Virus genome (UHGV): UHGV-1325408
Reading direction: 5' to 3' (one strand)
Length of the DNA: 12,867 nt
From: a virus
Position 1 is the first letter of the stretch, and each line of letters begins with the position of its first letter. A model generated the notes under the pieces. The model had not been told where the DNA came from. It worked only from the letters and a program-made list of their open reading frames with translations, and ran no database searches. The translations under genes and the position numbers were made by a program. This document shows positions 1-12,867 of this stretch, in pieces.

Positions 1-3660
<3,660 letters not shown>

Positions 3661-3680
<20 letters not shown>

Positions 3681-4980
3681 TCTCCCGCATATTGCCAGCA
3701 TGGCCTTTAATGAGCCACTGATGCTTGAACCCGCCTATGCGCGGGTTTTCTTTTGTGCGCTTGCAGGCCAGCTTGGGATCAGCCGCCTGACGGATGCGGT
3801 GTCCGGCGACAGCCTGACTGCCCAGGAGGCACTCGCGACGCTGGCATTATCCGGTGATGATGACGGACCACGACAGGCCCGCAGTTATCAGGTCATGAAC
3901 GGCATCGCCGTGCTGCCGGTGTCCGGCACGCTGGTCAGCCGGACGCGGGCGCTGCAGCCGTATTCGGGGATGACCGGTTACAACGGCATTATCGCCCGTC
4001 TGCAACAGGCTGCCAGCGATCCGATGGTGGACGGCATTCTGCTCGATATGGACACGCCCGGCGGGATGGTGGCGGGGGCATTTGACTGCGCTGACATCAT
4101 CGCCCGTGTGCGTGACATAAAACCGGTATGGGCGCTTGCCAACGACATGAACTGCAGTGCAGGTCAGTTGCTTGCCAGTGCCGCCTCCCGGCGTCTGGTC
4201 ACGCAGACCGCCCGGACAGGCTCCATCGGCGTCATGATGGCTCACAGTAATTACGGTGCTGCGCTGGAGAAACAGGGTGTGGAAATCACGCTGATTTACA
4301 GCGGCAGCCATAAGGTGGATGGCAACCCCTACAGCCATCTTCCGGATGACGTCCGGGAGACACTGCAGTCCCGGATGGACGCAACCCGCCAGATGTTTGC
4401 GCAGAAGGTGTCGGCATATACCGGCCTGTCCGTGCAGGCTGTGCTGGATACCGAGGCTGCAGTGTACAGCGGTCAGGAGGCCATTGATGCCGGACTGGCT
4501 GATGAACTTGTTAACAGCACCGATGCGATCACCGTCATGCGTGATGCACTGGATGCACGTAAATCCCGTCTCTCAGGAGGGCGAATGACCAAAGAGACTC
4601 AATCAACAACTGTTTCAGCCACTGCTTCGCAGGCTGACGTTACTGACGTGGTGCCAGCGACGGAGGGCAAAAACGCCAGCGCGGCGCAGCCGGATGTGAA
4701 CGCGCAGATCACCGCAGCGGTTGCGGCAGAAAACAGCCGCATTATGGGGATCCTCAACTGTGAGGAGGCTCACGGACGCGAAGAACAGGCACGCGTGCTG
4801 GCCGAAACCCCCGGTATGACCGTGGAAACGGCCCGCCGCATTCTGGCAGCTGCACCACAGAGTGCACAGGCGCGCAGTGACACTGCGCTGGATCGTCTGA
4901 TGCAGGGGGCACCGGCACCGCTGGCTGCAGGTAACCCGGCATCTGATGCCGTTAACGATTTGCTGAACACACCAGTGTAA
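3661..4980 (+). CDS. C: Head maturation protease / scaffold gpC (S49 ClpP-like family), GTG start
   Basis: Frame of ORF 3526..4980. The lambda gpC N-terminus (M)TAELRNLPHIASMAFNEPLMLEPAYARVFF begins at GTG 3661, preceded by AGGAGGAG (about 3648-3655). Overlaps the B 3' end by 20 nt. The upstream ATG at 3526 lies inside B and is not the real start. Confidence 0.9.
4375..4980 (+). CDS. Nu3: Scaffolding protein Nu3, translated from an internal in-frame start within C (co-terminal with C)
   Basis: In-frame ATG at 4375 (MDATRQMFAQKVSAYTGLSV...) with the same stop as C at 4978-4980. This matches the known nested C/Nu3 arrangement of lambda. Confidence 0.8.
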   Translation: MDATRQMFAQKVSAYTGLSVQAVLDTEAAVYSGQEAIDAGLADELVNSTDAITVMRDALDARKSRLSGGRMTKETQSTTVSATASQADVTDVVPATEGKNASAAQPDVNAQITAAVAAENSRIMGILNCEEAHGREEQARVLAETPGMTVETARRILAAAPQSAQARSDTALDRLMQGAPAPLAAGNPASDAVNDLLNTPV

Positions 4981-4989
4981 GGGATGTTT

Positions 4990-5322
4990 ATGACGAGCAA
5001 AGAAACCTTTACCCATTACCAGCCGCTGGGCAACAGTGACCCGGCACATACGGCAACCGCGCCCGGCGGATTGAGTGCGAAAGCGCCTGCAATGACCCCG
5101 CTGATGCTGGACACCTCCACCCGTAAGCTGGTTGTGTGGGATGGCACCACCGACGGTGCTGCCGTTGGCATTCTGGCGGTTGCTGCTGACCAGACCAGCA
5201 CCACGCTGACGTTCTACAAGTCCGGCACGTTCCGTTATGAGGATGTGCTCTGGCCGGAGGCTGCCAGCGACGAGACGAAAAAACGGACCGCGTTTGCCGG
5301 AACGGCAATCAGCATCGTTTAA
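4990..5322 (+). CDS. D: Capsid decoration protein gpD (110 aa)
   Basis: Translation [52 protein letters not shown]...[10 protein letters not shown] matches lambda gpD. The ORF track's start at 4984 adds MF; I take ATG 4990 as the start. Confidence 0.93.
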
Positions 5323-5342
5323 CCTTACCCTTCATCACTAAA

Positions 5343-5364
5343 GGCCGCCTGTGCGGCTTTTTTT
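5343..5364 (+). terminator. GC-rich hairpin followed by a T7 run in the D-E intergenic region (intrinsic-terminator-like or mRNA-stability element)
   Basis: aaGGCCGCctgtGCGGCttttttt: stem GCCGC (5344-5348) / GCGGC (5353-5357), 4-nt loop, then 7 T's (5358-5364), located between the D stop (5322) and the E start (5378). Confidence 0.35.
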
Positions 5365-5377
5365 ACGGGATTTTTTT

Positions 5378-6403
5378 ATGTCGATGTACACAACCGCCCA
5401 GCTGCTGGCGGCAAATGAGAAGAAATTTAAGTTTGATCCGCTGTTTCTGCGTCTCTTTTTCCGTGAGAGCTATCCCTTCACCACGGAGAAAGTCTATCTC
5501 TCACAAATTCCGGGACTGGTAAACATGGCGCTGTACGTTTCGCCGATTGTTTCCGGTGAGGTTATCCGCTCCCGTGGCGGCTCCACCTCTGAATTTACAC
5601 CGGGATATGTCAAGCCGAAGCATGAGGTGAATCCGCAGATGACCCTGCGTCGCCTGCCGGATGAAGATCCACAGAATCTGGCGGACCCGGCTTACCGCCG
5701 CCGTCGCATCATCCTGCAGAACATGCGAGACGAAGAGCTGGCCATTGCTCAGGTCGAAGAGATGCAGGCCGTTTCTGCCGTGCTTAAGGGCAAATATACC
5801 ATGACCGGTGAAGCCTTCGATCCGGTTGAAGTGGATATGGGCCGCAGTGTGGCGAACAACATCACGCAGTCCGGCGGTACGGAGTGGAGCAAGCGTGACA
5901 AGTCCACGTATGACCCGACCGACGATATCGAAGCCTACGCGCTGAACGCCAGCGGTGTGGTGAATATCATCGTGTTTGATCCGAAAGGCTGGGCGCTGTT
6001 CCGTTCCTTCAAAGCCGTCAAGGAGAAGCTGGATACCCGTCGCGGCTCTAATTCCGAGCTGGAGACAGCGGTAAAAGACCTGGGCGAAGCGGTGTCCTAT
6101 AAGGGGATGTATGGCGATACGGCGATCGTCGTGTATTCCGGACAGTACGTGGAAAACGACGTCAAAAAGAACTTCCTGCCGGACAACACGATGGTGCTGG
6201 GGAACACTCAGGCACGCGGTCTGCGCACCTATGGCTGCATTCAGGATGCGGACGCACAGCGCGAAGGTATTAACGCCTCTGCCCGCTACCCGAAAAACTG
6301 GGTGACCACCGGCGATCCGGCGCGTGAGTTCACCATGATTCAGTCAGCACCGCTGATGCTGCTGGCTGACCCTGATGCGTTCGTGTCCGTACAACTGGCG
6401 TAA
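5378..6403 (+). CDS. E: Major capsid protein gpE (341 aa)
   Basis: Translation MSMYTTAQLLAANEKKFKFDPLFLRLFFRESYPFTTEKVYLSQIPGLVNMALYVSPIVSGEV... ending ...ADPDAFVSVQLA matches lambda gpE. The ORF-track start at 5351 is an upstream in-frame ATG inside the hairpin. Confidence 0.95.
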   Translation: MSMYTTAQLLAANEKKFKFDPLFLRLFFRESYPFTTEKVYLSQIPGLVNMALYVSPIVSGEVIRSRGGSTSEFTPGYVKPKHEVNPQMTLRRLPDEDPQNLADPAYRRRRIILQNMRDEELAIAQVEEMQAVSAVLKGKYTMTGEAFDPVEVDMGRSVANNITQSGGTEWSKRDKSTYDPTDDIEAYALNASGVVNIIVFDPKGWALFRSFKAVKEKLDTRRGSNSELETAVKDLGEAVSYKGMYGDTAIVVYSGQYVENDVKKNFLPDNTMVLGNTQARGLRTYGCIQDADAQREGINASARYPKNWVTTGDPAREFTMIQSAPLMLLADPDAFVSVQLA

Positions 6404-6444
6404 TCATGGCCCTTCGGGGCCATTTTCTCTCTGTGGAGGAGTCC

Positions 6445-6843
6445 ATGACGAAAGATGAACTGATTGCCCGTCTTCAGGTGCTGGGTGAGCAACTGAACCG
6501 TGATGTCAGCCTGACGGGGACGAAAGAAGAACTGGCACTCCGTGTGGCAGAGCTGGAAGAGGAGCTTGATGACACGGATGAAACTGCCGGTCAGGACACC
6601 CCTCTCAGCCGGGAAAATGTGCTGACCGGACATGAAAATGAGGTGGGATCAGCGCAGCCGGATACCGTGATTCTGGATACGTCTGAACTGGTCACGGTCG
6701 TGGCACTGGTGAAGCTGCATACTGATGCACTTCACGCCACGCGGGATGAACCTGTGGCATTTGTGCTGCCGGGAACGGCGTTTCGTGTCTCTGCCGGTGT
6801 GGCAGCCGAAATGACAGAGCGCGGCCTGGCCAGAATGCAATAA
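6445..6843 (+). CDS. FI: DNA-packaging / head assembly protein gpFI (132 aa)
   Basis: Translation MTKDELIARLQVLGEQLNRDVSLTGTKEELALRVAELEEELDDTDETAGQD... matches lambda gpFI. GGAGGAG Shine-Dalgarno at about 6433-6439 upstream of ATG 6445. Confidence 0.9.
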   Translation: MTKDELIARLQVLGEQLNRDVSLTGTKEELALRVAELEEELDDTDETAGQDTPLSRENVLTGHENEVGSAQPDTVILDTSELVTVVALVKLHTDALHATRDEPVAFVLPGTAFRVSAGVAAEMTERGLARMQ

Positions 6844-6854
6844 CGGGAGGCGCT

Positions 6855-7208
6855 GTGGCTGATTTCGATAACCTGTTCGATGCTGCCATTGCCCGCGCCG
6901 ATGAAACGATACGCGGGTACATGGGAACGTCAGCCACCATTACATCCGGTGAGCAGTCAGGTGCGGTGATACGTGGTGTTTTTGATGACCCTGAAAATAT
7001 CAGCTATGCCGGACAGGGCGTGCGCGTTGAAGGCTCCAGCCCGTCCCTGTTTGTCCGGACTGATGAGGTGCGGCAGCTGCGGCGTGGAGACACGCTGACC
7101 ATCGGTGAGGAAAATTTCTGGGTAGATCGGGTTTCGCCGGATGATGGCGGAAGTTGTCATCTCTGGCTTGGACGGGGCGTACCGCCTGCCGTTAACCGTC
7201 GCCGCTGA
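6855..7208 (+). CDS. FII: Head-tail connector protein gpFII (117 aa), GTG start
   Basis: Translation (M)ADFDNLFDAAIARADETIRGYMGTSATITSGEQSGAVIRGVFDDPENISYAGQGVRVEGSSP... matches lambda gpFII. GGGAGG at 6845-6850 precedes GTG 6855. Confidence 0.9.
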   Translation: MADFDNLFDAAIARADETIRGYMGTSATITSGEQSGAVIRGVFDDPENISYAGQGVRVEGSSPSLFVRTDEVRQLRRGDTLTIGEENFWVDRVSPDDGGSCHLWLGRGVPPAVNRRR

Positions 7209-7219
7209 AAGGGGGATGT

Positions 7220-7798
7220 ATGGCCATAAAAGGTCTTGAGCAGGCCGTTGAAAACCTCAGCCGTATCAGCAAAACGGCGGTGTCTGGTGCCGCCGCAATG
7301 GCCATTAACCGCGTTGCTTCATCCGCGATATCGCAGTCTGCGTCACAGGTTGCCCGTGAGACAAAGGTACGTCGAAAACTGGTAAAGGAAAGGGCCAGGC
7401 TGAAAAGGGCCACGGTCAAAAATCCGCAGGCCAGAATCAAAGTTAACCGGGGGGATTTGCCCGTAATCAAGCTGGGTAATGCGCGGGTTGTCCTGTCCCG
7501 CCGCAGGCGTCGTAAAAAGGGGCAGCGTTCATCCCTGAAAGGTGGCGGCAGCGTGCTTGTGGTGGGTAACCGTCGTATTCCCGGCGCGTTTATTCAGCAA
7601 CTGAAAAATGGCCGGTGGCATGTTATGCAGCGTGTGGCCGGGAAAAACCGTTACCCCATTGATGTGGTGAAAATCCCGATGGCGGTGCCGCTTACCACGG
7701 CGTTTAAACAGAATATTGAACGGATACGGCGTGAACGTCTTCCGAAAGAGCTGGGCTATGCGCTGCAGCATCAACTGAGAATGGTAATAAAGCGATGA
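7220..7798 (+). CDS. Z: Tail completion protein gpZ (192 aa)
   Basis: Translation MAIKGLEQAVENLSRISKTAVSGAAAMAINRVASSAISQSASQVARETKVRRKLVKERARLKRATV... matches lambda gpZ. Stop overlaps the U start (ATGA at 7795-7798). Confidence 0.9.
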   Translation: MAIKGLEQAVENLSRISKTAVSGAAAMAINRVASSAISQSASQVARETKVRRKLVKERARLKRATVKNPQARIKVNRGDLPVIKLGNARVVLSRRRRRKKGQRSSLKGGGSVLVVGNRRIPGAFIQQLKNGRWHVMQRVAGKNRYPIDVVKIPMAVPLTTAFKQNIERIRRERLPKELGYALQHQLRMVIKR

Positions 7799-8190
7799 AA
7801 CATACTGAACTCCGTGCAGCCGTACTGGATGCACTGGAGAAGCATGACACCGGGGCGACGCTTTTTGATGGTCGCCCCGCTGTTTTTGATGAGGAAGATT
7901 TTCCGGCAATTGCCGTTTATCTCACCGGCGCTGAATACACGGGCGAAGAGCTGGACAGCGATACCTGGCAGGCGGAGCTGCATATTGAAGTTTTCCTGCC
8001 TGCTCAGGTGCCGGATTCAGAGCTGGATTCGTGGATGGAGTCCCGGATTTATCCGGTGATGAGCGATATCCCGGCACTGTCAGATTTGATCACCAGTATG
8101 GTGGCCAGTGGCTATGACTACCGGCGCGACGATGATGCGGGCCTGTGGAGTTCAGCCGATCTGACTTATGTCATTACCTATGAAATGTGA
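7795..8190 (+). CDS. U: Tail tube terminator protein gpU (131 aa)
   Basis: Translation [71 protein letters not shown]... matches lambda gpU. Confidence 0.92.
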
Positions 8191-8197
8191 GGACGCT

Positions 8198-8938
8198 ATG
8201 CCTGTACCAAATCCTACAATGCCGGTGAAAGGTGCCGGGACCACCCTGTGGGTTTATAAGGGGAGCGGTGACCCTTATGCGAATCCGCTTTCAGACGTTG
8301 ACTGGTCGCGTCTGGCAAAAGTTAAAGACCTGACGCCCGGCGAACTGACCGCTGAGTCCTATGACGACAGCTATCTCGATGATGAAGATGCAGACTGGAC
8401 TGCGACCGGGCAGGGGCAGAAATCTGCCGGAGATACCAGCTTCACGCTGGCGTGGATGCCCGGAGAGCAGGGGCAGCAGGCGCTGCTGGCGTGGTTTAAT
8501 GAAGGTGATACCCGTGCCTATAAAATCCGCTTCCCGAACGGCACGGTCGATGTGTTCCGCGGCTGGGTCAGCAGTATCGGTAAGGCGGTGACGGCGAAGG
8601 AAGTGATCACCCGCACGGTGAAAGTCACCAACGTGGGACGTCCGTCGATGGCAGAAGATCGCAGCACGGTGACGGCGGCAACCGGCATGACCGTGACGCC
8701 TGCCAGCACCTCGGTGGTGAAAGGGCAGAGCACGACGCTGACCGTGGCATTCCAGCCGGAAGGCGCAACCGACAAGAGCTTCCGTGCGGTGTCTGCGGAT
8801 AAAACAAAAGCCACCGTGTCGGTCAGTGGTATGACCATCACCGTGAAAGGTGTTGCTGCAGGCAAGGTCAACATTCCGGTCGTATCCGGTAATGGTGAGT
8901 TTGCTGCGGTTGCAGAAATCAACGTCACCGCCAGTTAA
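8198..8938 (+). CDS. V: Major tail tube protein gpV (246 aa), including the C-terminal Ig-like (Big_2-type) domain
   Basis: Translation [73 protein letters not shown]... matches lambda gpV. GAGGA Shine-Dalgarno at about 8187-8191 before ATG 8198; the ORF-track start at 8168 lies inside U. Confidence 0.95.
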
Positions 8939-8953
8939 TCCGGAGAATCAGCG

Positions 8954-9376
8954 ATGTTCCTGAAAACCGAATCATTTGAACATAACGGCGTGACCGTCAC
9001 GCTTTCTGAACTGTCAGCCCTGCAGCGTATTGAGCATCTCGCCCTGATGAAACGGCAGGCAGAACAGGCGGAGTCAGACAGCAACCGGAAGTTTACTGTG
9101 GAAGACGCCATCAGAACCGGCGCTTTTGTGGTGGCGATGTCCCTGTGGCATAACCATCCGAAGAAGACGCAGATGCCGTCCATGAATGAAGCCGTTAAAC
9201 AGATTGAGCAGGAAGTGCTTACCACCTGGCCCACGGAGGCAATTTCTCATGCTGAAAACGTGGTGTACCGGCTGTCTGGTATGTATGAGTTTGTGGTGAA
9301 TAATGCCCCTGAACAGACAGAGGACGCCGGGCCCGCAGAGCCTGTTTCTGCGGGAAAGTGTTCGACGGTGAGCTGA
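8954..9376 (+). CDS. G: Tail assembly chaperone gpG (140 aa)
   Basis: Translation MFLKTESFEHNGVTVTLSELSALQRIEHLALMKRQAEQAESDSNRKFTVEDAIRTGAFVVAMSLWHNHP...PVSAGKCSTVS matches lambda gpG. Stop TGA at 9374-9376. Confidence 0.92.
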   Translation: MFLKTESFEHNGVTVTLSELSALQRIEHLALMKRQAEQAESDSNRKFTVEDAIRTGAFVVAMSLWHNHPKKTQMPSMNEAVKQIEQEVLTTWPTEAISHAENVVYRLSGMYEFVVNNAPEQTEDAGPAEPVSAGKCSTVS

Positions 9377-9792
9377 GTTTTGCCCTGAAACTGGCGCGTG
9401 AGATGGGGCGACCCGACTGGCGTGCCATGCTTGCCGGGATGTCATCCACGGAGTATGCCGACTGGCACCGCTTTTACAGTACCCATTATTTTCATGATGT
9501 TCTGCTGGATATGCACTTTTCCGGGCTGACGTACACCGTGCTCAGCCTGTTTTTCAGCGATCCGGAGATGCATCCGCTGGATTTCAGTCTGCTGAACCGG
9601 CGCGAGGCTGACGAAGAGCCTGAAGATGATGTGCTGATGCAGAAAGCGGCAGGGCTTGCCGGAGGCGTTCGTTTTGGCCCGGACGGGAATGAAGTTATCC
9701 CCGCTTCCCCGGATGTGGCGGACATGACGGAGGATGACGTAATGCTGATGACAGTATCAGAAGGGATCGCAGGAGGAGTCCGGTATGGCTGA
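8954..9792 (+). CDS. GT: Tail assembly chaperone gpGT, produced by a programmed -1 ribosomal frameshift at 9352-9358 that joins G to the T frame
   Basis: The T-frame ORF (…GKVFDGELSFALKLAREMGRPDWRAMLAGMSSTEYADWHRFYSTHYFHDV...) has no independent canonical start and overlaps the G 3' end. The slippery heptamer G GGA AAG sits in the G zero frame at 9352-9358. T stop is TGA at 9790-9792, overlapping the H start. Confidence 0.85.
9352..9358 (+). promoter_or_regulatory. Programmed -1 frameshift slippery heptamer GGGAAAG (G to GT)
   Basis: Sequence cGGGAAAGtg, with codon phasing G|GGA|AAG in the G frame verified from the G start at 8954. This is the known lambda G-T recoding site. Confidence 0.85.
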
Positions 9793-11915
9793 ACCGGTAG
9801 GCGATCTGGTCGTTGATTTAAGTCTGGATGCGGCCAGATTTGACGAGCAGATGGCCAGAGTCAGGCGTCATTTTTCCGGTACGGAAACTGATGCGAAAAA
9901 AACAGCGGCAGTCGTTGAACAGTCGCTGAGCCGACAGGTGCTGGCTGCACAGAAAGCGGGGATTTCCGTCGGGCAGTATAAAGCCGCCATGCGTATGCTG
10001 CCTGCACAGTTCACCGACGTGGCTACGCAGCTTGTAGGCGGGCAAAGCCCGTGGCTGATCCTGCTGCAACAGGGTGGTCAGGTTAAGGACTCCTTCGGCG
10101 GGATGATCCCCATGTTCCGGGGGCTTGCCGGTGCGATCACCCTGCCGATGGTCGGGGCCACCTCGCTGGCGGTGGCGACCGGTGCGCTGGCGTATGCCTG
10201 GTATCAGGGTAACTCAACCCTGTCCGATTTCAACAAAACGCTGGTCCTTTCCGGTAATCAGTCGGGTCTGACGGCAGATCGTATGCTGGTCCTGTCCAGA
10301 GCCGGGCAGGCGGCAGGGCTGACGTTTAACCAGACCAGCGAGTCACTCAGTGCACTGGTTAAGGCGGGGGTAAGCGGTGAGGCTCAGATTGCGTCCATCA
10401 GCCAGAGTGTGGCGCGTTTCTCTTCTGCATCCGGCGTGGAGGTGGACAAGGTCGCTGAAGCCTTCGGGAAGCTGACCACTGACCCGACGTCGGGGCTGAC
10501 GGCGATGGCGCGCCAGTTCCATAACGTGACGGCGGAGCAGATTGCGTATGTTGCTCAGTTGCAGCGTTCCGGCGATGAAGCCGGGGCATTGCAGGCGGCG
10601 AACGAGGCCGCAACGAAAGGGTTTGATGACCAGACCCGACGCCTGAAAGAGAACATGGGCACGCTGGAAACCTGGGCAGACAGGACAGCACGGGCATTCA
10701 AATCCATGTGGGATGCGGTGCTGGATATTGGTCGTCCTGATACCGCGCAGGAGATGCTGATTAAGGCAGAGGCTGCGTTTAAGAAAGCGGACGACATCTG
10801 GAATCTGCGCAAGGATGATTATTTTGTTAACGATGAAGCGCGGGCGCGTTACTGGGATGATCGTGAAAAGGCCCGTCTTGCGCTTGAAGCCGCCCGAAAG
10901 AAGGCTGAACAGCAGAGTCAACAGGACAAAAATGCGCAGCAGCAGAGCGATACCGAAGCATCACGGCTGAAATATACCGAAGAGGCGCAGAAGGCTTACG
11001 AACGGCTGCAGACACCGCTGGAGAAATATACCGCCCGTCAGGAAGAACTGAACAAGGCACTGAAAGACGGGAAAATCCTGCAGGCAGATTACAACACGCT
11101 GATGGCGGCGGCGAAAAAGGATTATGAAGCGACGCTGAAAAAGCCGAAACAGTCCGGCGTGAAGGTGTCTGCGGGCGATCGTCAGGAAGACAGTGCTCAT
11201 GCTGCCCTGCTGACGCTTCAGGCAGAACTCCGGACGCTGGAGAAGCATGCCGGAGCGAATGAGAAAATCAGCCAGCAGCGCCGGGATTTGTGGAAGGCGG
11301 AAAATCAGTTCGCGGTACTGGAGGAGGCGGCACAACGTCGCCAGCTATCCGCACAGGAGAAATCCCTGCTGGCGCATAAAGATGAGACGCTGGAGTACAA
11401 ACGCCAGCTGGCTGTACTTGGCGATAAGGTCACGTATCAGGAGCACCTGAACGCGCTGGCGCAGCAGGCGGATAAGTTCGCACAGCAACAACGGGCAAAA
11501 CGGGCAGCCATTGAGGCGAAAAACCGGGGGCTTACTGACCGGCAGGCAGCGCGGGACGCCACGGAACAGCGTCTGAAGGAGCAGTATGGCGATAATCCGC
11601 TGGCGCTAAATAACGTCATGTCAGAGCAGAAAAAGACCTGGGCAGCTGAAGACCTGCTTCGCGGGAGCTGGATGGCTGGCCTCAAGTCCGGCTGGAGCGA
11701 GTGGAAAGAGAGTGCCACGGACAGTATGTCGCAGGTTAAAAGTGCTGCCACGCAGACCTTTGATGGTATTGCGCAGAATATGGCGGCGATGCTGACCGGC
11801 AGTGAGCAGAACTGGCGCAGCTTCACCCGTTCCGTGCTGTCCATGATGACAGAAATTCTGCTTAAGCAGGCAATGGTGGGGATTGTCGGAAGTATAGGCA
11901 GCGCCATTGGCGGCG
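9785..11915 (+). pseudogene. H: Tape measure protein gpH, N-terminal ~710 codons only; homology ends at a rearrangement breakpoint (about 11915-11917)
   Basis: Translation MAEPVGDLVVDLSLDAARFDEQMARVRRHFSGTETDAKK... through ...MMTEILLKQAMVGIVGSIGSAIGG matches lambda gpH. After this the + frame reads VAVSVDEVHRIQKTG..., which is the antisense of gene L, instead of the expected glycine-rich gpH continuation. The 865-aa ORF 9785..12382 is an accidental read-through. Confidence 0.85.
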
Positions 11916-11917
11916 TC

Positions 11918-12286
11918 GCTGTTTCCGTTGACGAAGTTCACCGCATCCAGAAAACGGGCATAAACCTTACGCCTGACCACCGTTCCGCCGACCAGACTCT
12001 GCAGATCTTCCGCCATCCCGGTGACCATGCCATACAGGTTAGAAACCGTCAGCGTGGGGCGCGTACTGGTGCCTTTGCCATTCAGTTCGAAACCACTCCC
12101 CTGAATGGGATACGCCTGATACTGTCGCCCCTGCCAGGTGACCGGCTCACCTTTTTCGTTCTGCTCATTACAGAAAAAATAACGTTCTCCACCAACCTCT
12201 GTCAGATCGATTTCCCAGAGCACCACGCTGGCCGACTGCTCCGCACGGGTGCATTCATTCAGTGTTTCCTGTCGGATATCCTGCAT
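11918..12286 (-). pseudogene. L: Tail tip assembly protein gpL, N-terminal 123 codons only (inverted relative to the rest of the module); truncated at the breakpoint
   Basis: Minus-strand ORF 11621..12286 starts MQDIRQETLNECTRAEQSASVVLWEIDLTEVGGERYFFCNEQNEKGEPVTWQGRQYQ...RFLDAVNFVNGNS (gpL N-terminus), then continues as antisense of H for 98 codons. Start ATG overlaps the M stop (TGATG). Confidence 0.85.
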
Positions 12287-12615
12287 CAGTTCACCACCTG
12301 TTCAAACTCTGCGCTGAACTCAACACGCAACATACTGACCCGCGACGACCATTTTGCGCAGGTCACCTTTATCTGCCGGTAGCCATAAGGCGGCGTCCAC
12401 AGAAAGGATTTCCAGCCCCCGTGCTCAGCCAGAAACGACTCAAGCGCCGTGGCCTCCCAACGGGGAACAGAAAGCGTCACGCTGTACGTTTTCAGGTCGG
12501 CATTCAGCCCGGCAGGCGCTCGCTGGGAATAGCCATCACCAAAGCGCACCTTTCTTACGGAAGGGGCCGAAGCCACATCCATACCGGGTTTCACTTTCCA
12601 GCGGAAGGTTTTCAT
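12286..12615 (-). CDS. M: Tail tip protein gpM (109 aa), complete but in inverted orientation relative to upstream tail genes
   Basis: Translation MKTFRWKVKPGMDVASAPSVRKVRFGDGYSQRAPAGLNADLKTYSVTLSVPRWEATALESFLAEHGGWKSFLWTPPYGYRQIKVTCAKWSSRVSMLRVEFSAEFEQVVN matches lambda gpM. ATGA overlap with the stop of the H C-terminal fragment. Confidence 0.9.
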   Translation of the reverse strand: MKTFRWKVKPGMDVASAPSVRKVRFGDGYSQRAPAGLNADLKTYSVTLSVPRWEATALESFLAEHGGWKSFLWTPPYGYRQIKVTCAKWSSRVSMLRVEFSAEFEQVVN

Positions 12616-12749
12616 CGTCCACCTCCGGAGAACAGACCACCATCGCGCATCTGCCCGGTCACAACATCCATTGCCGCCTTACGGGCTACGTCATAAACAG
12701 CCTTCAGTGCCTGTGGCCCTATCTGACCGTTCGTGCCGTCGTTGTTTAT
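12612..12749 (-). pseudogene. H: Tape measure protein gpH, C-terminal 45 codons (detached fragment on the - strand)
   Basis: The last 45 residues of minus ORF 12612..12845 (INNDGTNGQIGPQALKAVYDVARKAAMDVVTGQMRDGGLFSGGGR) match the gpH C-terminus. The preceding 32 residues (MPVSIIPEPKSFAISALTRLYTILIVLGKPWG) come from unrelated DNA. Confidence 0.85.
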
Positions 12750-12750
12750 C

Positions 12751-12867
12751 CCCCAAGGCTTGCCTAATACGATCAATATCGTATACAGCCTCGTTAGAGC
12801 CGATATGGCGAATGACTTCGGCTCCGGTATTATGGATACAGGCATTAATTTTATTTAATACTTGTTG
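12751..12867. other. Unassigned lower-GC segment abutting the inverted lambda block; possible 3' end of a - strand gene whose body lies beyond the window
   Basis: I counted 49 G+C in 117 nt (about 42%), versus the visibly GC-richer lambda structural genes. It is stop-free on the - strand in the frame reading QQVLNKINACIHNTGAEVIRHIGSNEAVYDIDRIRQALG, and does not continue the gpH sequence expected here. Confidence 0.4.

Follow-up and report, generated by a model that had tools for sequence, protein, structure and literature searches.

A split tape-measure gene and flipped tail block in a lambda-like Escherichia coli prophage contig look like strung-together DNA-copying jumps rather than a real genome arrangement

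The DNA considered here (the window) is the whole 12,867-nt sequence of UHGV virus genome UHGV-1325408, and it consists of lambda-like E. coli prophage sequence. Two relatives have served as the main references: contig ABYSXF010000003.1 of the E. coli draft genome GCA_049856055.1, which carries an intact lambda-like prophage, and E. coli KK05-19 (NZ_CM144239), the annotated complete genome that is closest to the window. From a truncated terminase gene A to codon 710 of the tape-measure gene H, the window holds an intact and collinear late operon (Table 1), which matches the phage lambda late operon and the lambda-like prophages at the DLP12 site of both relatives in gene content, order and sequence. 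Indeed, using BLASTN, window 127-11915 was found to align with positions 1174-12962 of the draft contig at 99.98% identity, with no gaps and a single SNP at window position 10035, whilst identity to KK05-19 over the same interval was 98.65%. The canonical G/T slippery site GGGAAAG is also found in the window. Within its 12.9 kb lie three structural junctions, termed J0, J1 and J2, and all bases can be assigned to prophage sequence, with neighbouring segments overlapping by 1, 5 and 6 nt.

Table 1. Features of the window, numbered from its first base; KK05-19 and ABYSXF010000003.1 are the two reference sequences.
Feature	Position	Strand	Basis
Terminal 127-mer from within terminase gene A; exact copy of window 967-1093	1..127	+	Self-BLAST, 100% over 127 nt
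A (5'-truncated), W, B, C, D, E, FI, FII, Z, U, V, G/T, H codons 1-710: intact collinear lambda-like late operon	127..11915	+	BLASTN against ABYSXF010000003.1 and KK05-19; Pfam
Tape-measure gene H, codons 1-710, then chimeric reading frame	9785..11915	+	ORF list; translation; TMP_2 and Tape_meas_lam_C
J1, microhomology CGGCG common to forward H and reverse-complemented L	11911..11915	.	Junction alignment
Inverted block, 836 nt: H3'-M-L5'	11911..12746	-	100% identity to reverse complement of ABYSXF010000003.1 14082-13247
L, codons 1-123	12286 down to 11918	-	Translation MQDIRQ...NGNSDA; Phage_tail_L
M, complete, 109 aa	12615 down to 12286	-	Translation; Phage_min_tail
H, last 44 codons and stop	12746 down to 12612	-	Translation NNDGTNG...FSGGGR and stop
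J2, microhomology GTTGTT common to inverted H 3' end and hydrolase gene	12741..12746	.	Junction alignment
Terminal 127-mer from interior of alpha/beta-hydrolase gene, prophage b region	12741..12867	-	KK05-19 27367-27493, within CDS 26468-27952

The diagnostic domains of a lambda-type tail module (H, M and L) were all detected in the window. Pfam searches matched H to TMP_2 (6e-69) and Tape_meas_lam_C (7e-21), M to Phage_min_tail over its full length (5e-38; 108/108) and L to Phage_tail_L (1e-46), the last over profile positions 1-95 of 206 only. The complete-gene, same-strand order H-M-L-K-I-J is not kept: H is broken at codon 710, the block that follows is antisense, and K, I and J are absent. 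A sequence-only reading had placed the end of forward H homology near codon 710 and had recognized the DNA downstream as the native H-M-L order in reverse complement, and both points were borne out by translation and by BLASTN against the intact relatives, which gave a forward match as far as 11915 and then a reverse-strand match over 11911-12746; the BLAST strands are unambiguous, so that a misreading of strand is excluded. The breakpoints it gave (about 11915 and 12750) were right to within 1-4 nt, and its assignment of L codons 1-123 and a complete M to the block stood, whilst the 45 terminal codons of H proved to be 44 and a stop. Translation across the break in H reads '...VGSIGSAIGG' followed directly by 'VAVSV', and the frame then continues through antisense L and M to a chance stop at 12382, which results in an 865-aa chimeric ORF.

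Two stretches are missing from the window. The first is a 284-nt piece of H (KK05-19 14630-14913); a gap in H had been correctly recognized, and its size is approximately 95 codons of the 849-aa protein, not 98. The second is far larger, comprising 11,617 nt (KK05-19 15750-27366) that hold the 3' end of L, K, I, J, lom, the tail fibres and part of the hydrolase gene. This stretch of about 11.6 kb is replaced by the 836-nt inverted piece, after which the window jumps into the hydrolase gene. What had been taken for missing data at the window's end is therefore hydrolase-gene sequence, and it marks a second junction. In relatives, the hydrolase gene is found on the minus strand and adjoins ompT; the closest complete genome has it some 11.6 kb beyond the L breakpoint, on the downstream side. 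The 127-mer from this gene that ends the window has a 100% match in at least 1,199 E. coli records and 11 phages; the gene itself occurs at 1,349 places in 1,305 genomes, about 97% of its carriers having a single copy. Also overlooked in the sequence-only reading were the repeat at the left end of the window, where the duplicated piece of gene A marks a third junction, and the exact 127-nt length of the ends.

In the intact references, H (849 aa), M, L, K, I, J, lom, the tail fibres and the hydrolase gene are collinear on one strand. The H-M-L-K-I-J order is collinear in all of the relatives that were fetched (8/8), and likewise in the phage and in the complete genome nearest to the window; in the draft-genome prophage, which is one SNP from the window, it is also normal. 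The H3'-M-L5' block and the hydrolase fragment are sequence-identical in the window and in the two reference prophages; the window is unlike these in lacking 284 nt of H and about 11.6 kb, in the inversion of 836 nt, and in a left end that repeats 127 nt of A. The claim that the H-M-L junction region had been inverted was not upheld in its simple form, as the exchange is non-reciprocal and both missing stretches were lost. Programmed inversion of tail genes is seen in the G segment of Mu (Gin), the C segment of P1 (Cin) and the P segment of e14 (Pin), in which short inverted crossover sites are found at both ends, with a serine invertase gene adjacent, and in which inversion is reciprocal, loss-free and gives functional alternative C-termini. 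The window shares with these systems a flipped block of tail-related genes, and it is the bare inverted orientation of this block within a phage tail region that speaks for an invertible segment of the same type, or for a simple inversion between inverted repeats. However, crossover sites, invertase, reciprocity and functional C-termini are all absent from the window, and the breakpoints fall inside the H and L coding sequences. A repeat search of both window and wild type found no inverted repeats that pair the two block ends, with only short repeats at chance level, and neither the ORF list nor the annotation of a relative revealed a recombinase ORF within the window. Together with the collinearity of the relatives examined and the absence of J1 from every collection searched, this renders such an inversion extremely improbable; since the junctions are non-reciprocal and crossover sites are missing, inversion mediated by an invertase or by inverted repeats was ruled out.

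The anatomy of the junctions points elsewhere. J0, between bases 127 and 128, is a direct-orientation back-jump of 966 nt with a microhomology of 1 nt, an overlap that is uninformative on the question of microhomology. J1 and J2 are both inverted joins, with partners that are 1.1 and 12.4 kb apart, respectively. The 5-nt match at J1 can be extended to 9 nt with one mismatch or to 10 nt with two, and the 6-nt match at J2 to 13 nt with two mismatches. When 200,000 random inverted joins were simulated to give the level expected by chance, the probability of a microhomology of at least 5 nt was 0.0054, and that of at least 6 nt was 0.0017. Alignment of the junctions revealed no untemplated bases, such that J1 and J2 both show what is expected of a template switch, namely short microhomology above chance level without untemplated bases. 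Because these features are accompanied by a lack of IS elements and of flanking inverted repeats, and by a non-reciprocal exchange, the rearrangement is the result of polymerase template switching, not of an invertible segment or a simple inversion. Two further mechanisms were rejected: an IS- or transposon-mediated rearrangement, as there is no mobile-element sequence and nothing is inserted at the breakpoints, and homologous recombination between prophages, as 1, 5 and 6 nt are shared at the junctions versus the tens to hundreds of bp that are required.

None of the three junctions was found in 5,426 complete E. coli genomes, in 50,697 phage records or among the plasmids of PLSDB, and the exact junction strings had no match in IMG/VR, JGI metagenome contigs or GTDB genomes. 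An origin from a lambda cloning vector or plasmid was rejected, as the junctions are absent from PLSDB and the phage records. No protein product on record corresponds to the chimeric H ORF, the chimeric L ORF or the edge-truncated terminase. In IMG/VR the string specific to the window's SNP is absent, and the wild-type H-middle string is present in 15 prophage contigs, none of which could be recognized as a product of the window's own assembly.

Both terminal pieces of the window are exactly 127 nt in length, and 127 is the largest k of SPAdes and metaSPAdes. The JGI metaSPAdes recipe likewise has a top k of 127 (PMC7171226). In a toy k=127 de Bruijn graph built from the window and the wild type, the vertices 1-127 and 12741-12867 are the branch points at which J0 departs from the wild-type path and J2 returns to it; divergence starts at base 128 on the left and at base 12740 on the right, and the contig ends are hence k-mers shared with the alternative path. 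The best explanation is that a k=127 de Bruijn-graph assembly of the SPAdes or metaSPAdes type produced the window as a complete contig. As the contig stops exactly at the first hydrolase 127-mer, the normal context of the hydrolase gene would have been present in the same read set. In addition, J1 and J2 are spaced 836 nt apart, which is beyond the span of a short read, so their co-location on one molecule is the assembler's own inference; it was presumably the assembler, and not a single molecule, that placed all three junctions on one sequence.

A purely computational join that involves no chimeric molecule, be it through collapse of lambdoid repeats, gap closing on a short overlap, or IS/homologous recombination between prophages, is very unlikely. 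It would draw on the fact that most E. coli genomes hold several copies of H-M-L sequence (median of 3 places per genome), and on the imperfect overlaps at J1 (10 nt, two mismatches) and J2 (13 nt, two mismatches), which come close to the tolerance of the SPAdes gap closer. A k=127 graph, however, cannot link segments that share just 5-6 nt unless some reads cross the join, and the inverted block matches the H3'-M-L5' of the cognate prophage itself at 100% identity, rather than that of another prophage; there is no IS, and each base of the window is accounted for. An artefact of the gap closer was rejected on two counts, in that the overlap at J0 is just 1 nt and that gap closing acts on dead ends whereas the contig termini are branch vertices.

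On balance, the junctions probably derive from chimeric or minority molecules, similar to those made in multiple displacement amplification (MDA), that were strung together by the assembler. The contig would then be a graph walk in which three non-reference edges (J0, J1 and J2) connect normal stretches of a single, intact lambda-like prophage of the DLP12-site type. At J1 and J2, the growing 3' end of the polymerase product would have come off its template and primed anew at 5-6 nt of complementarity on the opposite strand, 1.1 and 12.4 kb away. The molecules that bear the junctions most likely existed alongside the normal arrangement, either as MDA-type amplification chimeras or as rare aberrant replication products, and would have been in the minority or made in vitro. 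If the molecules do coexist with the normal arrangement, then the 'split H' and 'inverted H-M-L' are not a structure of the phage genome and would have no function.

In MDA, 85% of chimeras have been found to be inverted with intervening deletions, their partners mostly <10 kb apart, and they arise at 2-21 nt of complementarity at a rate of about one per 22 kb (Lasken & Stockwell 2007, PMC1855051; a further source for this profile is PMC10945365). The window is alike in its inverted joins with intervening deletion, in partners from the same molecule at approximately 1-12 kb, in priming complementarity of 5-6 nt without untemplated bases, and in a junction density of the order of one per 10-20 kb. 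It is unlike them in three respects: J0 is direct, spans 0.97 kb and overlaps by 1 nt, and direct short-range (<1 kb) back-jumps are a rare class among MDA chimeras (11/475; PMC1855051); the partners of J2, 12.4 kb apart, are slightly past the typical intramolecular range; and the junctions were taken up into the assembler's path, as chimeras of low frequency seldom are. The profile of J1, J2 and J0 largely fits the published one, yet it is not exclusive to MDA. Two further points count against an origin in chimeric molecules. An assembler normally takes the better-supported branch, and a path via J1 and J2 instead of wild-type H suggests either that molecules with these junctions were reasonably frequent in the sample or that it lacked the middle of wild-type H. 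Furthermore, if the source is a metagenome, the normal hydrolase context could come from another E. coli strain, in which case the contig-end signature would be non-discriminating.

Microhomology-primed, serial template switching is also the basis of the replication-based processes termed MMBIR and FoSTeS. It is less likely, though plausible, that the window reflects a real and very recent complex rearrangement of the prophage, in which a nascent strand switched templates twice at microhomologies (in an MMBIR/FoSTeS-like manner, or through a U-turn and a second switch). In such an event, 284 nt of H and then the stretch of about 11.6 kb from mid-L to mid-hydrolase would have been replaced by an 836-nt inverted copy of H3'-M-L5', whilst gene A would have gained a 966-bp in-frame tandem duplication, at the same time or separately, to leave a defective prophage still capable of forming heads and tail tubes, though without a tape measure or tail tip. 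Microhomology of 5-6 nt without untemplated bases fits replication-based switching equally well, the assembler's path takes J1 and J2 and not wild-type H, defective prophages are common, and 966 is a multiple of 3. Long-distance template switching at homologies of 4-15 bp is known in E. coli (PMC1428787), and U-turn inversions mediated by microhomology are known in other replicating genomes (PMC4417113); like the window, these have junctions that are primed by microhomology with no need for RecA-type homology, and serial switches can give a deletion together with an inverted inserted fragment. They differ in that their definition rests on junctions that are inherited and reach full allele depth, whereas the contig-end signature seen here points to a coexisting normal context. 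Such a rearrangement would also require that two or three rare events took place while the sequence diverged from the intact form by a single SNP, and a contig end one k-mer into the hydrolase gene would need a second, normal copy, in the same sample, of a gene that is nearly always single-copy in its carriers. Finally, there is no sign of inheritance, as the junctions are shared with no other genome, phage, plasmid or metagenome contig searched. It is rather unlikely that the contig represents a real, single-generation, MMBIR-like rearrangement of a live prophage, with the tail-tip module deleted, the inverted 836 nt inserted and 966 bp of the terminase gene duplicated. Were this true, it would be a natural, dated case of chromoanasynthesis-like mutagenesis in which a prophage was inactivated in one step; as such it would add one more private way to kill a prophage, and a modest example of replication-based template switching in bacteria.

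Reading the contig as a genome is doubtful on four grounds: three junctions are found within 12.9 kb, the ends lie one 127-mer from a junction, an intact twin exists at a distance of one SNP, and the junctions are found nowhere else. The sequence-only reading had concluded that the locus cannot make a normal tail. As written, the sequence indeed provides no tape measure, L, K, I, J or tail tip, but the conclusion presumes that the contig is the genome. The chief value of the analysis lies in quality control, as a gene-level reading would take the contig for a tail-defective prophage whose 'tape measure' is an 865-aa chimera, and chimeric ORFs of this kind can contaminate protein databases. A terminal segment that is exactly one k-mer long and lies beside a non-reference junction is a useful flag that a contig walks alternative or chimeric graph edges.

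The window comes from a lambda-like E. coli prophage and holds its late operon, with genes in the order terminase A (truncated by the left edge), W, portal B, C, D, E, FI, FII, Z, U, V, G/T and H. Among complete genomes, that of E. coli KK05-19 is closest (98.65% identity, 0 gaps); in it the counterpart module is part of a complete prophage occupying the DLP12 locus, flanked by rrrD, rzpD and nohD upstream and by the hydrolase gene, ompT, envY and nfrA downstream. A much nearer relative, L003 (contig ABYSXF010000003.1 of the E. coli draft GCA_049856055.1), was reached by looking up the G protein of the window; its H is intact (849 aa), M, L, K, I, J and lom come next, on one strand throughout, and it differs from window 127-11915 by 1 SNP. 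This SNP lies within H, where the window has T and L003 has C, and is the sole substitution across the collinear part; a 35-mer containing it had no occurrence in IMG/VR. The slippery heptamer canonical for the -1 frameshift of lambda G/GT is found at the end of G, directly before the G/T overlap, in keeping with a tail-chaperone pair that is otherwise functional.

BLASTN of the window against three intact references gave one and the same set of four segments each time, meeting at three non-reference junctions termed J0, J1 and J2 (see table). The sequence-only reading had H running forward to about codon 710 and then the 5' part of L, M and the 3' end of H in reverse complement; BLASTN, translations and Pfam bore this out, and its coordinates of 11915-12750 were correct to within a few bases, the forward match ending at 11915 and the reverse-strand match covering 11911-12746. 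The block is indeed reverse-complemented, but it is more than a segment inverted in place: the window has three junctions, and the J0 copy and the hydrolase end had been missed. Part of H is truly absent, though not the ~98 codons proposed; relative to KK05-19 the loss is 284 nt, or ~95 codons in the H allele of this phage. A second absent stretch, of 11,617 nt, comprises the 3' end of L, then K, I, J, lom, the tail-fibre genes, a methyltransferase gene and the hydrolase gene's 3' part. As had been proposed, the locus as written would be unable to build a tail. All bases of the window are traceable to prophage sequence, and base-by-base segment accounting found neither untemplated bases nor an IS element in it. 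In relatives, the hydrolase gene belongs to the prophage b region, with the tail-fibre genes on one side and ompT on the other, and the fragment in the window occurs at at least 99% identity in ~1,200 complete E. coli records and 11 sequenced lambdoid phages.

Features of the window and its relatives (window positions unless a relative is named)
Feature	Position	Strand	Details
Terminase A interior	1-127		100% copy of 967-1093
A through H codon 710	127-11915		collinear with references
Inverted block	11911-12746		100% identical to reverse complement of L003 14082-13247; encodes L codons 1-123, complete 109-aa M, last 44 codons of H plus stop (translations, Pfam)
Alpha/beta-hydrolase gene interior	12741-12867	-	100% identical
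J0	127/128		direct 966-nt back-jump within gene A; microhomology 1 nt
J1	11911-11915		forward H to reverse-complemented L, wild-type distance 1.1 kb; microhomology CGGCG, 5 nt
J2	12741-12746		reverse-complemented 3' end of H to forward hydrolase sequence, at a distance of 12.4 kb; microhomology GTTGTT, 6 nt
Slippery heptamer	9352-9358		GGGAAAG
SNP against L003	10035		
Chimeric 'tape measure' ORF	9785-12382	+	865 aa: H residues 1-710 + 155 aa antisense L/M
Chimeric L fusion ORF	11621-12286	-	221 aa: L residues 1-123 + antisense H
Imperfect inverted repeat, 13 nt	L003 12960-12972 / 13138-13150		GCGGCGCATCAGC / GCTGATGCGCGGC
Satellite-like module	L006 1-7450		Logan SRR24188784_282
Satellite-like module	L008 1-7490		GCA_031469255.1

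All three junctions were absent from 5,426 complete E. coli genomes, from phage records and plasmids, and from IMG/VR, JGI metagenome contigs and GTDB genomes. The two chimeric ORFs are chance products of the junctions, and neither is recorded among a 15-billion-protein collection. When 200,000 random inverted joins inside the prophage were simulated and their microhomology scored, the chance of at least 5 nt was P=0.0054 and that of at least 6 nt P=0.0017, from which it follows that J1 and J2 are annealing-primed joins and not blunt ligations. No inverted repeats pairing the two block ends were found in either the window or the wild type, and the exchange at the block is non-reciprocal; an ordinary inversion is therefore excluded, as is a Gin/Cin/Pin-type invertible segment, to which we give next to no credence. 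Homologous recombination between prophages was rejected because the joined sequences have 1-6 bases in common at the junctions. The mechanism is polymerase template switching, in which a growing 3' end would quit its template and re-prime nearby on the opposite strand. The imperfect inverted repeat of L003 begins precisely where J1 breaks H; it may be a site of polymerase pausing or due to chance.

On whether the joins arose in the cell or in the tube, we rate one detail as most telling: each of the two terminal segments measures exactly 127 nt. A toy de Bruijn graph (k=127) was built from the window, L003 and the hydrolase region of KK05-19; in it, the branch vertices at which J0 departs from and J2 returns to the wild-type path coincide exactly with the first and last 127-mers of the window. 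Since 127 is the top k in SPAdes and in the JGI metaSPAdes recipe (PMC7171226), the window appears to be a whole contig with ends fixed by graph branching. That the joins are purely computational is very improbable. The contig stops at the first 127-mer common with the hydrolase locus, which implies that the normal hydrolase context was also within the same read set; the gene very rarely has more than one copy (1,349 places in 1,305 genomes). In a metagenome, a second strain could provide that context.

We consider it probable that the junctions stem from chimeric or minority molecules which the assembler strung into one sequence. An intact twin prophage just one SNP away and three junctions within 12.9 kb speak for an origin in the tube, and the J1-J2 spacing of 836 nt means that no short read connects the two. 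Chimeras of multiple displacement amplification (MDA) have been found to arise at ~1 per 22 kb, 85% being inverted with intervening deletions, between partners on the same molecule, mostly <10 kb apart, with complementarity of 2-21 nt (PMC1855051); the junction profile of the window largely agrees with this description (PMC1855051; also PMC10945365), a profile not exclusive to MDA, except that J0 is of a class rare among them. Against rare chimeras, assemblers usually take the better-supported branch, and the path via J1 and J2 hints that the junctions were not rare. These caveats leave a smaller probability to a real rearrangement, complex and very recent, that put the tail module of the prophage out of action. 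Kilobase-scale template switching at 4-15 bp homologies occurs in living E. coli too (PMC1428787), and microhomology-mediated U-turn inversions have been described for other replicating genomes (PMC4417113). The back-jump at J0 is a multiple of 3, so that a tandem duplication there, if real, would keep the reading frame. The arrangement holds no new biology, being at best a private defective-prophage rearrangement of known mechanism; an assembly or amplification artefact is more likely, and the locus as written probably does not represent the genome.

In two further relatives, L006 and L008, a satellite-like module replaces the left half of the late operon, from Nu1 to the 5' part of E. It encodes a D5_N/Pox_D5 primase, an E-like capsid protein of its own (346 aa), an HDPD decoration protein and AlpA; L006 also has SSB, and L008 a TIR-domain gene. 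In L006 the E gene of lambda type is cut down to 254 aa, and none was called ahead of FI in L008. The arrangement resembles a capsid-forming phage satellite lying directly against the remains of a prophage.
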